From assembly GCA_001829415.1 (NCBI GenBank), contig MIBE01000005.1:9470-73469 (forward strand): a DNA stretch of 64,000 nucleotides, given 5' to 3'. How positions within the stretch are numbered: the stretch's first letter is position 1; each line of letters starts with the position of its first letter. The notes below the pieces were generated by a model. That model searched no databases. It saw only the letters and a list, made by a program, of their open reading frames with translations, and was not told the DNA's origin. This document shows positions 887 to 63,390 of the stretch, piece by piece. The stretch is from Spirochaetes bacterium GWF1_51_8 (GTDB lineage: Bacteria; Spirochaetota; Brevinematia; Brevinematales; GWF1-51-8). Made by a program: the position numbers and the translations under genes.

Positions 887-1771
887 ATGCACAATAAAAA
901 GCAACATTTTCTACCAAAGTTTTATCTTAAGGGATTTACTTCAAAACATTTCTTTAAAGGAAACGAATCAGAATGTTTCTGGGTTTATGATAAAGTAAAC
1001 AAAGGGATTACCAAAGGTTCTCCAGAAAAGGATTTTACCGCTTCATACTATTATTCATATATAAAACCCGATGGTTCATATGATCATGATTTAGAAAAAC
1101 AGCTAAGCAAAGTTGAATATAATGCATCTAAGGCTATAAAAAATATCATTAGAATTATTCATAAAAAAATTAAAAACGAATCAATATCCGAAATAATTTC
1201 TGAAGAAGATTTGGATGCAATTATAGAATTTACTGTCTGGCAAATAAAAAGAGTTCCTAGTATCGTGGATTTAATAAATTCAAAAATAGATGAGTTTAAA
1301 AATAATCTGGTTGATGAATACTCCTTTCTATATGGTGTTGATGCGAGTAATGAAATGGTTAACAAAGTACTGCATCCAGATTCTATTAATAAAAAGAAAC
1401 TAGATTTGATAAAAGAATTGGGAAATGATGACATGATTAATTTCTTCTCAGCGATAAAAAGAAAAAATATTAGGATATTTTATATTTCAAAAAATGAATT
1501 TTCTTTTATTACCTCAGATAATCCGGTTATTAGAATAAATAATAATGAACCAAATGGATTAAATATTGCATCAACAAGAATTTTCTTTCCATTACATAAA
1601 AAATTATTAATATTGTTCTATGAACACGGGAAAAGCATAGATTTTTATAAAGTTGCCAATTATCAAGAATTACTTTATATAAATAAAAGTATCTCTCTAT
1701 TTTGTCATCAGAAATTAATTTCTAGGGATAAAGAAATGCTTGAAACAATAAGAGAAGAATTATATCGTTAA
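887..1771 (+). CDS. DUF4238-family protein (AT-rich island gene)
   Basis: The N-terminal HFLPKFYLKGF matches the H-x-x-P-x-F-Y-L-x-x-F signature I associate with DUF4238. A spot count gives ~28% GC against ~68% in the adjacent sua5. The ATG lies 1 nt after the sua5 stop. Confidence 0.65.
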   Translation: MHNKKQHFLPKFYLKGFTSKHFFKGNESECFWVYDKVNKGITKGSPEKDFTASYYYSYIKPDGSYDHDLEKQLSKVEYNASKAIKNIIRIIHKKIKNESISEIISEEDLDAIIEFTVWQIKRVPSIVDLINSKIDEFKNNLVDEYSFLYGVDASNEMVNKVLHPDSINKKKLDLIKELGNDDMINFFSAIKRKNIRIFYISKNEFSFITSDNPVIRINNNEPNGLNIASTRIFFPLHKKLLILFYEHGKSIDFYKVANYQELLYINKSISLFCHQKLISRDKEMLETIREELYR

Positions 1772-3331: not shown

Positions 3332-4276
3332 ATGAATAGAATCGCCCTGTTTTTATTATTCGTCTGCTCGCAAGCCTATTCCGCGGTACACACCATCACG
3401 GAACTCAACCTCAAGATCGATATCCCGTCAGGGTGGTCTGTTAAAACCACGCCGTACACCCTCGATGCCGTCGATCCGTCGGGCGCGCACCATATCGAGA
3501 TCAACCTCGACTTCGTCCCGAACCCGAATACATTCAGCGAGAAGGACAAGCTGAAGGAACTGGAGAAATTCTGTCTGGCGTACGCGGGCACGAATATCGG
3601 GATCGTCGACTCAGGGCGCGTGACGTTCATGGGGCTCCCGGCGCTTTTCGCGGGGTACCGTTACACCGCCCCCGACGGCAAGCTCCATTGCGCGGTCACG
3701 TATGTGTTCGACAACAAGGCGGGCAAGGCGCAGATCACTATCGACAGTACGCGGGAATCGCTTGTCATGGCGGGATATGCTATCGAGGATATCGTGAAAA
3801 CCCTCGCCCCGGCGGCCGGGCCCGCGGGGTATCACCCGAAAACGCAGGATATGTATTTCTACACCGCCAACCTGAAAGTGACATTCCCCTACGACTGGAA
3901 ACCCGCGCTCACGGGCAATACCATCTCCGGCGAGACGAAAAGCGGGGTGAAATGGGCGCTCGAGATTTTCCCGGAGAGCGTGTTCGAGATGAAATCCCAG
4001 TTCGAGATTACGGCGTTATTGAAGAAGCACGCGACAGCGCGTTACGGTAAACTCCTGCAATTCTTCGGCGAGAGCGCGATCGGCGGGAAAGGGATGACGG
4101 TTGCGGCGCTGCATTTCAGCTTGGCCGATTCAAAAAAAATTTGGATGTACTATCTTGTCGATACCGGACTCGGGACTTTCCTTTTTTCAACCCAAGCGGA
4201 GGGAACGGGATTTACCATGTCGTCCAAAGACATCGAGTCGTTTATGAAGAGTTTCAAGAAACTGACGGATTGGTGA
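3332..4276 (+). CDS. Secreted hypothetical protein
   Basis: Start chosen at MNRIALFLLFVCSQAYSA (signal peptide) after a ggagg RBS. GC-rich coding frame. No family recognised. Confidence 0.7.
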   Translation: MNRIALFLLFVCSQAYSAVHTITELNLKIDIPSGWSVKTTPYTLDAVDPSGAHHIEINLDFVPNPNTFSEKDKLKELEKFCLAYAGTNIGIVDSGRVTFMGLPALFAGYRYTAPDGKLHCAVTYVFDNKAGKAQITIDSTRESLVMAGYAIEDIVKTLAPAAGPAGYHPKTQDMYFYTANLKVTFPYDWKPALTGNTISGETKSGVKWALEIFPESVFEMKSQFEITALLKKHATARYGKLLQFFGESAIGGKGMTVAALHFSLADSKKIWMYYLVDTGLGTFLFSTQAEGTGFTMSSKDIESFMKSFKKLTDW

Positions 4277-5125
4277 TTATTTCCATACGCCCTCATGGAC
4301 GAGATAGAGGGGGTAACCTGCCTTCTCCATTTTCGCCAGACATTCGATCCACACACCCCACGCCGTTCCCGGCTGAACGATCTTATTCGTACCGTATGCC
4401 GAGAAATAGAGCTTTTGAGTTTCGTCCGGCGTCTTCCCCGCCCATTCCGGAATGGCCTTCACTGAGTATTTCAGACAGATTTCCATATCCGCCGGAAGCG
4501 ATACGAACGAAGCATCGAGTTTAACAGGATAGTACCATAACGCAAGCCGGGCGAATTTTTCGGCATATTTTTGAAACTCTTCCATAGTATGGCCGTTCTG
4601 CCCGATCATCTTCTTCATCATGAGAAGCGGGAACGGCAAAGAGATGTCGCCGGTAAACTTCGAGAAATCGGACGACCCGCCCGTATGCGCCTTCAGCCAT
4701 GACGAGTAGTCCTTGCTGAGTACGGTCACGCCCGCGACATTGACAATATCCGCGCCGTAGGTATTGGAAAAGCAATTGTAGAACAGGATACGGAATCCGC
4801 CCTGCCAATGGTTGGCGGGGTTCGGCTGAAACTCCTCATACTCGTCATACGGCCCCATGAGCGAACGGTAATATGCGGCGACCGCTTCCAGACTGTCGGC
4901 GGTCAGGCGCATCTGCGATGTCAGCTTCTTGGTTCCGTCGTTGTCCGCGGATTGCCCCGACGGGAGACTCCCGAACGGCACCGATTTAGGGTAGTATGAA
5001 TGAACCGGATGGGAGTAGATGAACGTCGTCTCGATCTCCGAGAGTGCTGTCACCCGCGATGAAGCGGATAACATCAAAGCGATAATATATACGAAGCAAA
5101 GGAACCGCATCCGTTCTCCTTTCAT
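4277..5125 (-). CDS. Secreted hypothetical protein, tandem paralogue A
   Basis: Signal peptide MRFLCFVYIIALMLSASS. Shares DSLE-x-V-x-AYY-x-x-LM, [LM]PFPL[LM]MM, GHT and the C-terminal VHEG..WK with 5183-6004. Confidence 0.75.
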   Translation of the reverse strand: MKGERMRFLCFVYIIALMLSASSRVTALSEIETTFIYSHPVHSYYPKSVPFGSLPSGQSADNDGTKKLTSQMRLTADSLEAVAAYYRSLMGPYDEYEEFQPNPANHWQGGFRILFYNCFSNTYGADIVNVAGVTVLSKDYSSWLKAHTGGSSDFSKFTGDISLPFPLLMMKKMIGQNGHTMEEFQKYAEKFARLALWYYPVKLDASFVSLPADMEICLKYSVKAIPEWAGKTPDETQKLYFSAYGTNKIVQPGTAWGVWIECLAKMEKAGYPLYLVHEGVWK

Positions 5126-5182
5126 TTATCGATTACCCCGCTGAGTGTCCGAAACAGGAAAGTTATGATCTATCCGAACCTG

Positions 5183-6004
5183 CTACTTCCAGAAGGCCGA
5201 GCCCTCATGAACAATCTTCACCGGGTAAGCAAGCTTGTCCAGTTCGATGAGAGAATCCAGCCAGATCGCCCAACTGTCTTTCTGGTAGAGTTTCGAGACC
5301 GAGGCCATTCCCTCTTTCTGAAGCCACTGATCGAACTGTTTGGGAGTCATCTTCTTATCTACCCCGGCGGCCTTCTGGTATGCGTGCATAATCGTCTTGT
5401 CGTAATCGTCAGCCAACTCGTCTTCCATATCCTTCTGGTAGGAACGGTAGAACATCGAGCTGAGTTTCATATATTTCTTCTTCGCATCGTCGAGGTCTTT
5501 TTGCGTATGCCCGAACATGAGTCCGGTTGTGGACATCATCATGAGAGGAAACGGCATCAGCGAGTATTCCATCGCGGACGTATCGCCGCCGGTATATTTC
5601 GCGAGGTCTTTCATCTTCGTATCGTTATCGTTCATAAAAATCGTCACCTTCGCGGCTTCGTTTCCCTCACCGTCCTTGAAAATGATTTCCCAGCCCTTCT
5701 TATATTCGTTCTCCTGACCGGGGACGATCTCATTGATCACGTCAGTTCCCGTCATCAGCTTTTTATAATATGCGGTCACGGTCTCGAGACTATCCTTAGA
5801 AAGCTTGGTCAGGCGGTAATCGGTTTCGCTGACATTGCCGGGATTTTCTCCCTCGATGTATGACTTCAGGATATCGAGGCCGGTCACGGTGATCATCGGT
5901 ACGGTTTTGTCGTACATCTTCATCGCGCCTTTCGGGGCGGCATTCAGCATTAACGGAATCCCAGAAAGTAATATAAGCGTAAGCATCGAATAGACTCTTT
6001 TCAT
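5183..6004 (-). CDS. Secreted hypothetical protein, tandem paralogue B
   Basis: Signal peptide MLTLILLSGIPLMLNA. Same motif series as 4277-5125. Confidence 0.75.
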   Translation of the reverse strand: MKRVYSMLTLILLSGIPLMLNAAPKGAMKMYDKTVPMITVTGLDILKSYIEGENPGNVSETDYRLTKLSKDSLETVTAYYKKLMTGTDVINEIVPGQENEYKKGWEIIFKDGEGNEAAKVTIFMNDNDTKMKDLAKYTGGDTSAMEYSLMPFPLMMMSTTGLMFGHTQKDLDDAKKKYMKLSSMFYRSYQKDMEDELADDYDKTIMHAYQKAAGVDKKMTPKQFDQWLQKEGMASVSKLYQKDSWAIWLDSLIELDKLAYPVKIVHEGSAFWK

Positions 6005-7955: not shown

Positions 7956-8255
7956 ATGCCCGAACTTTCCCGGATCGAATATTTCCTGACAGAACATATG
8001 AAGCACTTCCGTGAGGAGTATAAGGTCAAACGGCTCGGTATCTTCGGCTCGGTCGCGAGAAACGAGAGTACCGGGGAAAGCGACCTCGACCTCCTCGTAG
8101 AATTTGAAGAGGGTGAGGCTACTTTCGATCATTATATGGATTTAAAGTTTTATATCGAGGATAATCTTGAAATCAAAGTCGATTTGGTGACAAAAGCCGC
8201 ACTAAGAAAAGAGTACCGGGATCAGGTACTGGAAGAGACAATCTATGTCGGGTAG
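7956..8255 (+). CDS. mntA: MntA-type nucleotidyltransferase antitoxin
   Basis: GIFGSVARNESTGESDLDLLVEF is the minimal nucleotidyltransferase motif (GS-x10-DxD). It overlaps the next gene by 11 nt. Confidence 0.8.
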   Translation: MPELSRIEYFLTEHMKHFREEYKVKRLGIFGSVARNESTGESDLDLLVEFEEGEATFDHYMDLKFYIEDNLEIKVDLVTKAALRKEYRDQVLEETIYVG

Positions 8256-8577
8256 ACGCAGAGAATTCTCATTCCTCATCGACGATATCCTTAAATCAGC
8301 AGAGAAGATTGTAAAACTTGTTGAATACTCAAGTTTTGAGAGATTTCAAGATGATTGGAAAGGATATGATGCGGTTCTAAGAAATTTAGAAATCATCGGA
8401 GAAGCAGTAAAAAATCTTCCGCAGGAATATAAAGATGTTCACCCTGAAATAGAATGGAGAAAAATCGCCGGATTACGCGACGTAATCATCCATAGGTATT
8501 TCGGTATCGATGATTTTATTATTTGGGATATTGTCACGAATAAAATTCCAGTTTTGATACAAGTACTCTCAAAATAA
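8245..8577 (+). CDS. hepT: HepT (DUF86/HEPN) toxin
   Basis: RDVIIHRYFGIDDFIIWDIV contains the HEPN R-x4-H motif. AT-rich. Confidence 0.8.
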   Translation: MSGRRREFSFLIDDILKSAEKIVKLVEYSSFERFQDDWKGYDAVLRNLEIIGEAVKNLPQEYKDVHPEIEWRKIAGLRDVIIHRYFGIDDFIIWDIVTNKIPVLIQVLSK

Positions 8578-8635: not shown

Positions 8636-9286
8636 CTAATAGCCCTTATAGTTCGTGTTGTCCGACAGCTCCAGCTCCGTGATCCATCTCGCCCATTTAT
8701 AGCCCCATTTATCCTCGGCGACGAGTATCAACGGGAACCCCAGCTTCGCGGGCAGTTCCAGCCCGTTCGCCTTGTACGCGAGGATCATGTCCTTGCCGAG
8801 CACCTCGTGTAACGGAAGCGATGTCGAATAGCCGTCGGCGGCGCGCAGGATCAATGTCTTGGGCTTGCCGGGCACGCCCGACTTCTGCAGGATCGACTTC
8901 ACCGTCACTCCCTCCCAGAGCACGTTGACCGACCAGCCCTCGACACAGTAGATCGTGACGAGTTTCTTGACCGGCGGCAGGTTCGTGATATCCGCATACC
9001 CGAGCGAGAGCTTTTTCGTGACAAGCCCCTTGACCTTGAGGGTGTACTTCGACGGATCGATCTGCTGCACGCCCTTGATCGAGTTCTCGCGGAAGCTGTT
9101 GACGGACTGGAGCGGGATACCGTTGTAGTTCGTCATCTCGCCCGGCGAGTATTTCGACGTGGACGCAGTCGCGCCCGATGCCGCGTCTGCCTTCGCCTGG
9201 CTTCCGGCGTTCGCCTTCCCCGTGCATCCGCCTAAGGTCACAGCCGCCGCGATGATCGCGGCAATAAAAAATATTCCTGTCTTCAT
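8636..9286 (-). CDS. Molybdopterin-dependent oxidoreductase-like lipoprotein (YedY/MsrP-type Moco-binding domain)
   Basis: Lipobox LGGC. YCVEGWSVNVLWEGV...ADGYSTSLPL...LAYKANGLELP...GFPLILV...KWARWI is typical of the sulfite-oxidase-fold Moco domain. Confidence 0.7.
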   Translation of the reverse strand: MKTGIFFIAAIIAAAVTLGGCTGKANAGSQAKADAASGATASTSKYSPGEMTNYNGIPLQSVNSFRENSIKGVQQIDPSKYTLKVKGLVTKKLSLGYADITNLPPVKKLVTIYCVEGWSVNVLWEGVTVKSILQKSGVPGKPKTLILRAADGYSTSLPLHEVLGKDMILAYKANGLELPAKLGFPLILVAEDKWGYKWARWITELELSDNTNYKGY

Positions 9287-9316: not shown

Positions 9317-10483
9317 TCAAATAATCCGAGGGTTGAGCACGACGATATCCATCCCGAGTTTATGAGCGAGAGGCGCGGTCTTCTCCGATGCCGCAGCGTC
9401 CGGCACGACAACCGCCGCGTTCCCCTTCGGGATTTCGCCGAGCCGGAGATCGCCCGGTATCCGCCATTCGTTCTCCTTCACCCAACGTCCCTCCCGCCCT
9501 CGGAACTGGAAGAACGGCTTGTCCTCGTCGTACATGTCGTCATAGTCCTCGTCGCCGCCGTAGACCACAGGGCGCGCCCCGAGTGTCTCCATATACCCCC
9601 GCGCGATGGCTATCCCGTAAGGCTCGTAGGTATAACGGTCTTTCCGGCTTCGCCAACGGACTATCGAGAGCGACAACTCGGGCTGGTCGGCGGTCATCGA
9701 TACCCCGGCATACCCGCCGCGTATCCCGTCGGAACTCGCGAACACCGTTCCGGTTTCGAGGATGCGCTCGAGCGTGTGCGCCGCCGAATGGGAGTATCCC
9801 GATGGATCGGCGAAAACGGACGCGTAGTACTCCGCGCGCGTCTCGCCCGGGAACGGCGTGTGGAACGAACGTGTCCAATGCACAAGGTAGTCCCAACTCT
9901 CGAAGCGCCTGCTTCCGGCCTGCGCGATACCGGCTCGTCCGCGTCCGGACCCAGCCTCATAGTCGATCCGGAAGTCGCCGCGCACCCTCGCCGGCGGAAG
10001 CGAGGCGATCAGTTCTTCCAGCCCGCCGCCGGGGCGTATCGACACCGGAGCGATAGCGTCGGCGGATAACGCGAGCGCCCGGTCGCGTTCGGGCCAAAAG
10101 TCCTTGTGCCTCTGCGCCGGAATCCCGGTGATGCACGGCAGGAAAAAGACTTTTTCCGCATTAAGCGCGAAATCGTCCATCACACGCGCGGCCGCCTCGC
10201 GCGCATCGTCCGTACCCCACACCGGAATGAAAACCGCGAGCGGATATCCTTTCGACCCGGCATACCACAGCGCAAACTCGTAGGTGTTCATTTCGACCGA
10301 TGCGAGGATCGTGTAGCCGAGCGACGTGTAGGTGTCGATCGCGCGCGCGGTTCCTGTCATCCACCCGTCGCAACCGCGCGGGAACTTCGTCTGCCGCGAG
10401 TTCAGGATGAGCGCGAGCGGGCGTTCTTTCGCCTCCGCGATCTGTAACGGGATATTGCCCGGTTTCAGGATTTTGTACCGCAT
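9317..10483 (-). CDS. Fusion protein: N-terminal LOG/DprA-type (SLOG) Rossmann domain and C-terminal AbiGi-like domain
   Basis: Start chosen at MRYKILK after a gagggaaaag RBS. N-terminal motif FWPERDRALALSADAIAPVSIRPGGGLEELI. C-terminal motifs LVHWTRS, YEPYGIAIARGY..GARPVVY and ENEWRIPGDL. Confidence 0.55.
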   Translation of the reverse strand: MRYKILKPGNIPLQIAEAKERPLALILNSRQTKFPRGCDGWMTGTARAIDTYTSLGYTILASVEMNTYEFALWYAGSKGYPLAVFIPVWGTDDAREAAARVMDDFALNAEKVFFLPCITGIPAQRHKDFWPERDRALALSADAIAPVSIRPGGGLEELIASLPPARVRGDFRIDYEAGSGRGRAGIAQAGSRRFESWDYLVHWTRSFHTPFPGETRAEYYASVFADPSGYSHSAAHTLERILETGTVFASSDGIRGGYAGVSMTADQPELSLSIVRWRSRKDRYTYEPYGIAIARGYMETLGARPVVYGGDEDYDDMYDEDKPFFQFRGREGRWVKENEWRIPGDLRLGEIPKGNAAVVVPDAAASEKTAPLAHKLGMDIVVLNPRII

Positions 10484-10579
10484 ATTCTTTTCCCTCGGGA
10501 TAATTATAACAGACACGGAAAAACTTTCAATCTCCCGTAATGTTATATACACGTGTTTATTTACATAGCACGGCAATAA

Positions 10580-13867: not shown

Positions 13868-14350
13868 GTCAAATCAGAAGGACTCTTCTTTCTTTCCACA
13901 TAGGAAAGAAAGAAGCAAAGAAAGTATGCCGCGCAGGATAAAGCTTAAGAGAAGAACCGGGAATTCCGTTTCGGGCGTAACTCGCCTGAATGTCCTTTAA
14001 AAGCGATAACGGGTCTGCGTCGGACATACGCCCTCTGACGGAATTCCCGGTGAGCATAAATCGCTTTAAAGCGCGCGGGAAAAAATAAAACCTATTAAAT
14101 CCTTTCTCTTGTCTTTGGCTGTTATTCCCCCGCCTCTATGCCGGGATTGATCTTTCGCTATGAGAAATTATTGACTTCCCCGCGAAACGTTAAAAACGCC
14201 GTCTGTCTGACGACCCCGCTTGCGGGGGAGGAGTTACGGCGTTTTCGTTTCGCGCATTTACTTTCTCAGTCGTGCAAACACACTCGACCGGCATCAAGGC
14301 GGAGCAGCCTTTCTTTGCATACTTTCTTTCCCCTGAGGGAAAGAAAGTAT
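13868..14350. repeat. Composite intergenic repeat cluster (modules B, long hairpin, element X at 14127-14350)
   Basis: Module B is cttctttctttcc-acata-ggaaagaaagaag. Element X runs cccccgcctctatgccgg ... long hairpin 14178-14254 (cgcgaaacg..aaaacgccgt / acggcgttttcgtttcgcg) ... ccggcatcaaggcgg ... hairpin atactttctttcccctgagggaaagaaagtat. Copies occur at 22443-22655 (inverted) and 43288-43526. Confidence 0.85.
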
Positions 14351-14574
14351 GAATCGCTAATTAGGGATACCCCGTCACGGAAGACGGGGCAAGAAAGGGA
14401 TAGTTTTTCGGCGCTTTTTTACATATTTCACACTCCTCATTCCTGCTGAAATATTGAAAAACTTTTCTCCCTATAGATTCGCCAATCTTGGACTATTATT
14501 TCTTACACTTTTTTGACACAACACTTTTTACGGATGTATAATAGCCAAATAAAGTATTTTAGAGGAAAGTGATA

Positions 14575-15579
14575 ATGTATTTTTCTATATCTGCAAAAAC
14601 ATATAGTGATATACTATATGCAATATTTGAGGGTTTAAAGAAATCCATTCCAGAACCTAATCTTTCTGAACCTCAGTTAGTCGCAAATATAGTTTATAAT
14701 ATTCCGAATGAAATAAATAGAGTATCGGGAGCGATAAAATGTGGCGGAATTTTTGTTCATCAACAACCATTTGTAGAATATAGTAATATGCCAGATCCTA
14801 AACAAAAATCAGTTGAAATTGGTGATTTACTATTACTCAGATCAGAAATAAATAATGGTAGAGAAATTTCTACTTCAGCAATGTTACTTCAGGCGAAGAA
14901 GAATGATAAATTCCCAATAATTCCCGATAATGAGAACCAACACTACCTATATGCTCATTGGCCGGTTTTTAAATACTGTAAAAAATCGGGTGATCTTACA
15001 GGTCAGCAAAGATGTATAAATGGATTAGATGTATATAATGCATGTAAATATCTAATATTTTCCGAATCATATATTCCATTTTGCTATCCCGATTCGAATC
15101 CTCCGGCAATTCGAAGGTGCTTTTTTGATTTTATAAAACTTCCTTTGAACACATACACTGCACATCCCTCATGGCCATATCTATCATCGTTTATTAGTTT
15201 TCCGCAGGAGTTGTTAAATTTTATTATTGGAAATGCGGGAAAATTATATATATCCTCACCGCCTCAAAATGATGGAAATTGGAGTGGGGTTATCAATGAT
15301 TTAAAAACTATAACTGCAAACCATACTTCAGTGATTATTTCTCGTACTACCGGCATCCCTCATACAAAAAGAGGTGTTTCGTTGTTTTTCTCCGGAGATT
15401 CATCTTGTTTATCTTTCATTAGTAAAGATAATAAACAATCAATATTAATCTCTGATGAACCACCAAATGTATCTAATTTGGAGAACGATATAATTGAGGA
15501 AGAAGAAGGTGGTATTTCAATCATAGAGTTTATTGTTGATACATCTGATGAGAGTCACACACGTCTTCGAATGGAGTAG
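14575..15579 (+). CDS. AT-rich orphan protein with a possible PD-(D/E)xK-like nuclease motif
   Basis: ~25-30% GC. The agagga RBS favours the ATG at 14575. The motif VEIGDLLLL-x19-LLQAKK resembles the E-x-x-D ... Q-x-K arrangement of Cap4/Mrr-type nucleases. No other family recognised. Confidence 0.5.
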   Translation: MYFSISAKTYSDILYAIFEGLKKSIPEPNLSEPQLVANIVYNIPNEINRVSGAIKCGGIFVHQQPFVEYSNMPDPKQKSVEIGDLLLLRSEINNGREISTSAMLLQAKKNDKFPIIPDNENQHYLYAHWPVFKYCKKSGDLTGQQRCINGLDVYNACKYLIFSESYIPFCYPDSNPPAIRRCFFDFIKLPLNTYTAHPSWPYLSSFISFPQELLNFIIGNAGKLYISSPPQNDGNWSGVINDLKTITANHTSVIISRTTGIPHTKRGVSLFFSGDSSCLSFISKDNKQSILISDEPPNVSNLENDIIEEEEGGISIIEFIVDTSDESHTRLRME

Positions 15580-62683: not shown

Positions 62684-62755
62684 AGCGGGAAACGGGATTT
62701 GAACCCGCGACTCCCAGCTTGGGAAGCTAGTACTCTACCACTGAGTTATTCCCGC
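62684..62755 (-). tRNA. tRNA-Gly (anticodon CCC)
   Basis: The reverse complement GCGGGAATAACTCAGTGGTAGAGTACTAGCTTCCCAAGCTGGGAGTCGCGGGTTCAAATCCCGTTTCCCGCT folds by hand into a cloverleaf: 7-bp acceptor, D arm ACTC/GAGT, anticodon loop TTCCCAA, T arm GCGGG/CCCGT with loop TTCAAAT. No CCA is encoded. Confidence 0.9.
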
Positions 62756-62820: not shown

Positions 62821-63390
62821 TCATACTTTCAGCCTGTAGGATTTCGGCGAGTACCCGTTGAGGTAATCGATAACTTCCTTCGGCTCGGCGGCGATATAGT
62901 ACAAGTCGCGGAAGAGCTCGTCGATAAACCGTTCGCGGAAAAGCTCGTCGAAAAGGTCGCTCAGGCTGGAATAAAACCCCGATGTATTGAGGAAAACGAT
63001 AGGTTTTCTGTGATAGCCGAGCTGCTTCAATGTGATCACCTCGAGTATCTCCTCGAGCGTACCGAATCCGCCGGGGAGCGCGATGAACGCGTCCGCGCGG
63101 GTTTCCATGATCTCCTTCCGCTCGCCCATCGTCTTTGTCACGACAAGTTCGTCGGGGTTCTCGAACACGATCCCCTTACGGTTCAACACCTCAGGGATGA
63201 CGCCTATGACGCGCCCGCCGCCGGATTTTACCGCGCGCCCGACCGCGCCCATCAGGCCGATCTCCCCCGCGCCGAAGATGACATGGTCGCCCGATGCGGC
63301 GATCAGACGGCCGAGTTCCTCGGACTTCTCGAAAAACGTCCGCCTGACATGGTCGCTCGACGACGCGAATACGCAGATTGTTCTATTCAT
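62821..63390 (-). CDS. LOG-family (TIGR00730-type) nucleotide 5'-monophosphate nucleosidase
   Basis: GGGRVIGVIP ... ALPGGFGTLEEILEVITL is the PGGxGTxxE LOG signature. Confidence 0.88.
   Translation of the reverse strand: MNRTICVFASSSDHVRRTFFEKSEELGRLIAASGDHVIFGAGEIGLMGAVGRAVKSGGGRVIGVIPEVLNRKGIVFENPDELVVTKTMGERKEIMETRADAFIALPGGFGTLEEILEVITLKQLGYHRKPIVFLNTSGFYSSLSDLFDELFRERFIDELFRDLYYIAAEPKEVIDYLNGYSPKSYRLKV

Follow-up and report, generated by a model that had tools for sequence, protein, structure and literature searches.

In a stretch of 64,000 nucleotides from contig MIBE01000005.1 of Spirochaetes bacterium GWF1_51_8 (the whole of which is called the window here), a gene on the minus strand encodes a protein of 388 amino acids which fuses a DprA-like SLOG domain to an AbiGi-like domain. 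A preliminary description, made before any database search, had read it as a stand-alone fusion of a LOG/DprA-type SLOG domain and an AbiGi-like domain, and as a candidate nucleotide-sensing conflict protein. The motif strings quoted there (FWPERDRALALSADAIAPVSIRPGGGLEELI, LVHWTRS, VSMTADQPELS, YEPYGIAIARGY...GARPVVY and ENEWRIPGDL) are all present in the translation. The enclosing open reading frame (ORF) spans 9317-10576, and an internal ATG at 10483 gives the 388-residue product. This ATG was taken as the start because the TTG at 10576 is located upstream of a promoter-like site, and the N-termini of the homologues concur. Homologues were found with E-values down to 1e-124 and have the same two-domain length. 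The AlphaFold2 model of the whole protein reached a predicted local distance difference test score (pLDDT) of 93.6 and a predicted template modelling score (pTM) of 0.90. The ORF is a genuine, conserved gene with an uncharacterized product of two parts, which in the best explanation is a cytoplasmic two-domain enzyme (Table 1).

Table 1. Features of the fusion gene and its product, in window positions. CDS, coding sequence; ssDNA, single-stranded DNA; ART, ADP-ribosyltransferase; dN/dS, ratio of nonsynonymous to synonymous substitution rates.
Feature	Position	Strand	Evidence
CDS of the DprA-like/AbiGi-like fusion, 388 amino acids	9317..10483	-	Stop codon 9317-9319; ORF list, homologues, model, dN/dS
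N-terminal domain, residues 1-170, SLOG Rossmann fold, DprA clade	9974..10483	-	Foldseek, hhalign, Pfam matches of relatives
Codons S29-R30 (LNSRQ), putative counterpart of DprA ssDNA-binding motif 1 G-[STA]-R	10394..10399	-	hhalign, conservation
Codons R133-D134 (W-P-E-R-D), putative counterpart of DprA motif 2 [FLY]-x-x-R-[ND]	10082..10087	-	hhalign, conservation
Variable inter-domain linker, residues 171-196	9896..9973	-	Lowest-confidence block of the model (pLDDT 58-88), high column entropy, gap-rich alignment
C-terminal domain, residues 197-388, AbiGi-like, ART-type fold	9320..9895	-	Model, fold matches, Pfam scores of relatives, literature
Codons H202-W-T204 (HWT), candidate ART motif I, first strand of the C-domain	9872..9880	-	Conservation, model strand 199-204
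Codons E337-N-E339 (E-x-E, then W-R341), candidate catalytic ART motif III	9467..9475	-	Conservation, start of model strand 339-343
Shine-Dalgarno-like GAGGGA	10491..10496	-	7 nt 5' of the ATG, direct sequence reading
Sigma-70-type promoter-like site with extended -10, TTGAAA-16-TATAAT	10503..10530	-	11/12 consensus matches; consensus match only

Scans of the window protein against Pfam, NCBIfam and PADLOC, as a whole and for each half, gave no match, and the family consensus sequences had none in Pfam. HMMER searches against PDB sequences yielded chance matches only, e.g., HisF and CobU, whether the query was the protein itself, a long member, or a profile of the family or of the C-domain. 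Because the window protein itself has no library match, the domain assignments rest on profiles, relatives and the predicted structure. The profile scan of each half, which had been recommended in the preliminary description, was empty for the window protein, and six close relatives reach the AbiGi threshold.

When residues ~1-170 were compared with the PDB by Foldseek, ShosA (8zva, E = 6.9e-5) was the first match and DprA (4ljr, E = 1.3e-4) the second. DprA was found from three species, followed more weakly by a molybdenum cofactor (Moco) carrier protein and LOG, with probabilities of 0.94-1.00. This set of matches identifies the N-terminal domain as a SLOG fold. In the profile comparison by hhalign, the domain scored 94.5% (E = 7.9e-8, 134 columns) against a DprA-domain profile of five sequences and 0.7% against a LOG profile of equal size. 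The DprA, LOG and Tpt1 profiles used here are small and were built from PDB-derived sequences; comparisons with single sequences (E. coli Smf, E. coli KptA and the LOG protein of the window) were not significant. Of the LOG/DprA type proposed before, the SLOG fold and the likeness to DprA stand, but not the LOG type. The gene at 62821-63390, which had served as the LOG reference, is genuine (Pfam Lysine_decarbox, 8.5e-39). Matches to Pfam DNA_processg_A (PF02481) were obtained for 4 of 36 and 4 of 10 relatives (best 9.2e-7), with listed scores of 14-21 bits under the gathering score of 29.6. One relative, P0032, bears a precomputed PF02481 match. Longer family members (500-560 amino acids) cover most of the Pfam DprA domain, also under the gathering score, and the window protein gave nothing against it at E <= 10.

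Both ssDNA-binding motifs of DprA have probable counterparts in the N-terminal domain: in the hhalign alignment, LNSRQ pairs with GSR and W-P-E-R-D with F-P-R-R-N. Among 112 full-length members, S29 is found in 97% and R30 in 79%, and the G of G-S-R is absent, with N in its place. The second motif reads W-x-x-R-D; R133 is conserved in 111 and D134 in all 112 members, whereas W occupies the aromatic position in only 50%. G153 is present in 110 of the 112. In Helicobacter pylori DprA, both motifs hold ssDNA, as was shown by structure and mutagenesis (PMC3950713). The putative pocket residues are S-R, which follows the first strand, R-D of the W-x-x-R-D helix, and the Gly. Profile and alignment together show a DprA-clade SLOG Rossmann domain which probably keeps the residues that hold base and phosphate in the ssDNA pocket of DprA. 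Around G153 the family consensus is IRPGGxLxxLL and does not contain the conserved T or E of the LOG motif PGGxGTxxE. The GGG-L-EE signature emphasized in the preliminary description is present in the window protein, but of its residues the family retains G153 alone; GGGLEEL has arisen there by local coincidence and is not a family motif. A LOG-type hydrolase was ruled out by the missing conservation of PGGxGTxxE and the low LOG profile score.

The C-terminal domain, modelled alone at a pLDDT of 93.8, gave weak Foldseek matches in the PDB, headed by yeast Tpt1 (7yw4; probability 0.92, E = 0.063, template modelling score 0.56 on the target), exotoxin A (E = 0.5-0.9) and Tpt1 again (8tg3). Heat-labile enterotoxin and CopC follow far lower in the list with a negligible probability of 0.02. 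These matches are ART folds throughout and weak throughout. The structural check suggested beforehand led to ShosA and DprA for the N-terminal half and, weakly, to ART folds for the C-terminal half. A structure search of BFVD with the C-domain found uncharacterized phage proteins only, down to E = 1e-4. Among the first 36 relatives, four had weak Pfam AbiGi matches and two had DUF2971 matches, and in the C-domain profile search relatives at E = 1e-36 to 1e-51 carry PF10899 (AbiGi). Six close relatives were rescanned and reached 25.9-28.6 bits, compared to a gathering score of 22.4. Their matches span model positions ~22-82 only (~60 of 185), i.e., a stretch VxFS ... EPYG[IV]A ... PVxY from strand 2 to strand 4. 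The preliminary description had pointed to this very stretch, and the AbiGi-like nature of the C-terminal half is thereby borne out. Neither half of the window protein nor the family consensus matched PF10899. Judged by these scores, the family overlaps the edge of Pfam AbiGi, with the window protein below detection. The motif order H-x-T ... EPYG ... PVxY ... ExEWR agrees with the one that the preliminary description associates with AbiGi-type proteins.

H202, E287-P288, Y308, W334, E339 and R341 are invariant in the 112 members; E337 is found in 111 and T204 in 109 of them. All members have S or T at position 264, and Y289 is 90% conserved. H202, [ST]264, Y308 and E339 form a candidate catalytic signature and are located on predicted strands in the expected ART order. 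In the literature, AbiGi is placed among the ADP-ribosyltransferase families; for DUF2971, a similarity to both AbiGi and DarT was reported, along with a conserved Tyr and an ExE motif (motif III). The model shows an AbiGi-like domain with a predicted ADP-ribosyltransferase fold, an invariant His on strand 1, Tyr residues and E-x-E, and the invariant residue set has the pattern of a presumably active ART of the H-Y-E/ExE type. Alternatively, the protein could be a catalytically inert DprA paralogue, i.e., a recombination mediator in which the C-domain is a binding or oligomerization module. The N-domain is DprA-like and canonical DprA also has a variable C-terminal domain (PMC3950713). The invariant H, Y and E-x-E-W-R and a C-domain that is conserved above the N-domain argue for catalysis, however, and make this explanation highly improbable.

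Taken together, we favor, with a probability of about 0.4, an enzyme which consumes NAD+ to ADP-ribosylate single-stranded nucleic acid and is guided by its DprA-like domain. The ADP-ribose of NAD+ would be transferred to a single-stranded nucleic acid, ssDNA being the likeliest acceptor, or to a factor that is bound there. Substrate capture would be the task of the DprA-like domain and catalysis that of the AbiGi-like domain, so that the protein would resemble a single-chain analogue of DarT on ssDNA or the two-lobed layout of Tpt1. It may mark or block ssDNA intermediates, which could be incoming or phage DNA or could arise in the replication and recombination of the cell itself. A role in defence is possible, as far as the sequence can tell.

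Several findings weigh against this assignment. The C-domain matches solved ARTs weakly (the best at E = 0.063), the window protein lacks any Pfam match, and hhalign of the C-domain profile against the Tpt1 profile was negative with 0.4%. At position 30, which corresponds to the key Arg52 of DprA, only 79% of the members have R, and the aromatic position of motif 2 varies. The DprA pocket could also take a free nucleotide instead of DNA. Moreover, an ssDNA-modifying toxin would normally need a reverser like DarG, and in the four genes on each side of the target at 84 loci no conserved neighbour of any kind was found; the Macro family is absent from the 25 commonest neighbour families.

The fold matches also bear on a housekeeping enzyme for RNA ends or nucleotides, which would remove 2'-phosphates from RNA or DNA ends like Tpt1/KptA or cap 5'-phosphates with NAD+, and whose SLOG domain would hold the nucleic acid or process the ADP-ribose by-product. 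Yeast Tpt1 is the best C-domain match in the PDB, and the combination of a nucleic-acid-binding lobe with an ART lobe mirrors Tpt1. SLOG domains are predicted in the literature to process ADP-ribose derivatives, and the gene occupies stable chromosomal positions by housekeeping genes, among which are tsaD, rlmN and glyQ in certain lineages. However, membership in the Tpt1 family was ruled out by the hhalign result, the catalytic motif of LOG is absent, and the gene evolves faster than its typical housekeeping neighbours. This explanation is quite unlikely.

Another alternative concerns the acceptor. In this case the DprA-like domain would dock on ssDNA, RecA or SSB, the ART domain would modify RecA, SSB or RNA polymerase, and the ADP-ribosylation would tune recombination or transcription. 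DprA and ShosA bind RecA besides ssDNA, and most characterized bacterial ARTs target proteins. The mechanism of AbiG is given as unknown in the literature, and both AbiG and Aristaios, a lactococcal single-gene antiphage DUF2971 protein of ART fold, affect phage transcription. Nevertheless, the nearest described relatives of AbiGi include the DNA-modifying DarT, and we regard a protein-modifying ART with such a tuning function as distinctly improbable.

The first homology search revealed 36 proteins of 360-550 amino acids, nearly all with the same two-part layout. Those with a name are annotated as hypothetical proteins, and one of the 36 is from a Brevinematales metagenome-assembled genome (MAG). 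The C-domain profile was then scored against 1.84 billion representative proteins (50% identity clusters), which gave 2,588 relatives at E <= 1e-3, of which 1,413 reach E <= 1e-30. In most of the best 150, the C-domain follows an N-terminal region of ~175-225 residues, or of 300-350 residues in a longer form. One relative belongs to a cultured bacterium, Rhodopirellula maiorica SM1. A scan of one genome per species yielded 80 loci. Hosts of the loci are MAGs labelled Zixibacteria and Ignavibacteria as well as Planctomycetota, Calditrichaeota, Latescibacter, Syntrophales, Desulfomonile and Brevinematales. Both domains are fused in 79 of 84 loci, and the fusion defines a large unnamed family of ~2,600 clusters at 50% identity. 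Close pairs of members show dN/dS values of 0.05-0.23, which indicates purifying selection.

Several proteins which appear to carry the C-domain alone were inspected. In L089, a single open frame (4179-5537) contains both domains and the 'stand-alone' C-domain of the database is a truncated gene call; those of L090 and L091 are located on contigs with several frameshifts. In two Planctomycetota contigs (L007, 5382-6618, and L008, 5189-6606), the DprA-like and AbiGi-like halves are in different frames which overlap at the linker, followed by nadA. This arrangement could be a true split into two genes or the result of long-read indel errors. Since most short C-domain proteins are truncated calls or come from frameshifted long-read contigs, no split two-gene form is claimed as genuine. 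A linkage to nadA was discarded as well, as it is found in these two contigs without recurrence in other loci.

In the window, a leuD-like gene (Aconitase_C) is located divergently upstream of the fusion gene. Downstream, an Oxidored_molyb lipoprotein gene (8636-9286, minus strand) with a GGAGG ribosome-binding site starts 30 nt after the stop codon. Pfam thus agrees with the leuD and Moco genes named in the preliminary description. Between the fusion gene and the Oxidored_molyb gene, the minus strand showed no terminator-like site, so that the two may be co-transcribed. Their adjacency is also present in a related Brevinematales-like contig (L001) and was unseen outside this lineage. In the related contig, the orthologue is located between the same neighbours (leuD-like, Oxidored_molyb, HepT/MNT, glyQ), and the flanking proteins are 67-91% identical to those of the window, compared to 51% for the target. 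The spot is therefore syntenic, contrary to what had been assumed. The G+C content at third codon positions (GC3) of the gene is 0.77, like that of host genes, compared to 0.55 and 0.31 for the adjacent MNT/HepT pair. Host-like GC3 and shared flanks show that the gene is resident, and a recent horizontal acquisition was ruled out on these grounds. The MNT/HepT toxin-antitoxin pair (7956-8577, plus strand) is located between glyQ and the Oxidored_molyb gene, where neighbouring genes have a GC3 of 0.65-0.83. L001 contains a HepT/MNT pair between the same two genes, and its HepT is only 55% identical. A second Brevinematales-type context (L002, L003 and L009) has the order purE-guaA-target-MptE-like-radical SAM, unlike that of the window, so the position of the gene is not fixed across the order. 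In L002, an AAA_15/DUF3696 gene and an AbiEii gene are located 3-6 kb from the target.

Clustering of the neighbours at the 84 loci revealed no universal partner gene, the commonest neighbour cluster being present in 11 of them, which fits the stand-alone protein proposed before. The recurrent neighbours are housekeeping genes. One set of loci has the order GH3 (NagZ-like), AnmK, SpoIID, target; TsaD, glycosyltransferases and urocanase are found at others. No link to competence genes was seen in these neighbourhoods, so the synteny with competence or DNA-uptake genes that would have spoken against the preliminary reading did not emerge. Among 142 immediately flanking proteins, PADLOC gave scattered single-component generic matches (MotB-like, cyclase-like), none of them recurrent. 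The expected co-localization with defence genes was scored in this way and did not appear, and a location in defence islands is supported neither by the neighbour clustering nor by PADLOC. Searches of 72,556 plasmids, 50,697 phage genomes and the IMG/VR contigs, collections which under-represent these phyla, gave no copy of the gene.

For the question of inheritance, synteny was used, since the taxon labels of MAGs are inconsistent. In MAGs labelled 'Ignavibacteria', the targets are 82-95% identical to those from 'Zixibacteria'-labelled ones (L024/L025, L048/L063, L057/L060, L061/L062); the neighbouring genes are the same where comparable, and the public labels are inconsistent. In 56 syntenic pairs of loci, which are not independent of each other, divergence of the target exceeds that of the median neighbour in 47 and that of every neighbour in 30. 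We infer a stable chromosomal gene, vertically inherited within several uncultured lineages, rather than a mobile defence cassette, against which its stability and synteny speak. The raised evolutionary rate is compatible with a role in conflict.

A sensor-effector protein has to be considered in this context, in which binding of a small nucleotide or of a signal derived from ADP-ribose to the SLOG domain would activate an AbiGi-like NADase or ART that aborts infection, similar to a single-chain ThsA. SLOG domains do sense ligands in ThsA, and with Aristaios a single-gene defence protein of ART fold exists. The higher divergence of the gene compared to its neighbours would fit, as would the faster divergence of the N-domain compared to the catalytic domain (mean identity 0.29 vs 0.39). 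However, the N-domain is of the DprA clade and has probable counterparts of its ssDNA motifs, neither TIR (ThsB) nor another signal-producing family such as a cyclase is among the recurrent neighbours, the neighbourhoods are housekeeping and syntenic rather than islands, and plasmids, phages and viral contigs carry no copy. This explanation is unlikely. The nucleotide-sensing conflict protein of the preliminary description likewise finds no support in a presumably ssDNA-binding SLOG domain of DprA type, housekeeping neighbourhoods and the lack of copies in the plasmid, phage and viral collections. A conflict role may nonetheless apply, given that the gene has a higher evolutionary rate than the genes around it.

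The full statement, namely a DprA-guided nucleic-acid ADP-ribosyltransferase whose gene is chromosomal and passed on vertically in several uncultured phyla (Zixibacteria and relatives, Planctomycetota, Brevinematales), is tentative and somewhat unlikely to hold as a whole. If it is true, a previously unrecognized single-chain enzyme would mark ssDNA with ADP-ribose, either for the control of replication and recombination or as self-contained innate immunity without a separate antitoxin. It would represent a new architecture for NAD+-dependent nucleic-acid modification and, given this activity, could be used to direct ADP-ribosylation to particular sites or strands. That DarT ADP-ribosylates DNA bases was discovered only recently, and few enzyme families are known for this reaction; DprA-like modules are only now emerging outside of natural transformation, e.g., in ShosA. 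To our knowledge, AbiGi has been an orphan since 1996, without a known mechanism. In thousands of family members, a putatively ssDNA-binding domain of DprA type is physically coupled to a presumably catalytic AbiGi-like one, which leads to the testable prediction that AbiGi-type domains act on single-stranded nucleic acid. The stable chromosomal positions in uncultured phyla suggest a role beyond that of a mobile defence cassette.

Besides the fusion gene, some other regions of the window were conspicuous. An AT-rich ORF at 887-1771 (plus strand), with a GC content of ~0.30 where the window as a whole has 0.51, codes for a DUF4238 protein (PF14022, 1e-33). It comes immediately behind a Sua5/TsaC-like ORF and resembles an insertion of foreign DNA. 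Two AT-rich ORFs without Pfam match (14138-15579, plus strand) are located between lepB and gyrB, an interval which in L001 contains a HEPN/MNT pair and an ORF of 191 amino acids instead; the differing contents indicate a variable hot spot between conserved genes. A single tRNA gene (62684-62755, minus strand) beside the LOG gene is the sole Rfam match at the gathering score in the 64-kb window.

Among the known systems, DprA/Smf (PF02481), the recombination mediator of natural transformation, has the same SLOG Rossmann fold as the N-domain, with a strong profile match and probable counterparts of both ssDNA motifs. In contrast to DprA, the window protein is under the Pfam threshold, has N for G in G-S-R and belongs to a family in which the R of this motif is not universal. 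It is a short form without the SAM-like N-terminal domain and without the winged-helix C-terminus, the AbiGi-like domain being located there instead. ShosA, the DprA-like antitoxin of the antiphage system ShosTA (PDB 8zva, 9vzo), is the best structural match of the N-domain and represents a DprA-like ssDNA-binding protein that functions in phage defence, outside of transformation. ShosA is paired with a separate phosphoribosyltransferase toxin, ShosT, whereas here an ART-like domain is fused to the DprA-like one and no ShosT-like neighbour was seen.

AbiGi (PF10899) is known from the lactococcal abortive-infection system AbiG. Close relatives of the C-domain pass its gathering score, but neither an AbiGii partner nor a plasmid location is found here. 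As to DarT and DUF2971/Aristaios, the family has a candidate His/Tyr/ExE-type signature like that described for DUF2971, and DarT ADP-ribosylates ssDNA, the activity proposed for the window protein. These proteins have no DprA-like domain, however, and no DarG-like macrodomain partner was seen near the fusion gene. ThsA of Thoeris (SIR2-SLOG) likewise combines SLOG and an NAD+-consuming domain in one chain. Its SLOG domain is C-terminal and senses isomers of cyclic ADP-ribose, the effector is SIR2 and a TIR partner, ThsB, is needed, in contrast to the fusion described here, which has none. The RNA 2'-phosphotransferase Tpt1/KptA is the best match of the C-domain among solved structures, has a two-lobed layout and carries H-x-T on the first ART strand; there is no relationship on the profile level, and its nucleic-acid lobe has a different fold. 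In its function, the protein would come closest to a DprA- or ShosA-type ssDNA binder and an ART of the DarT, AbiGi or DUF2971 type combined in a single chain. By the thresholds and profiles of these families, the window protein does not belong to Pfam DprA, AbiGi, LOG or Tpt1; to the first two it is distantly related. The preliminary description knew of no defence system built as such a single polypeptide, and the combination of DprA-like and AbiGi-like domains was also undescribed in the literature searched, the 2015 paper that defined SLOG lying outside its coverage. The fusion is a new architecture made from two known domain superfamilies, and it defines a family of its own.

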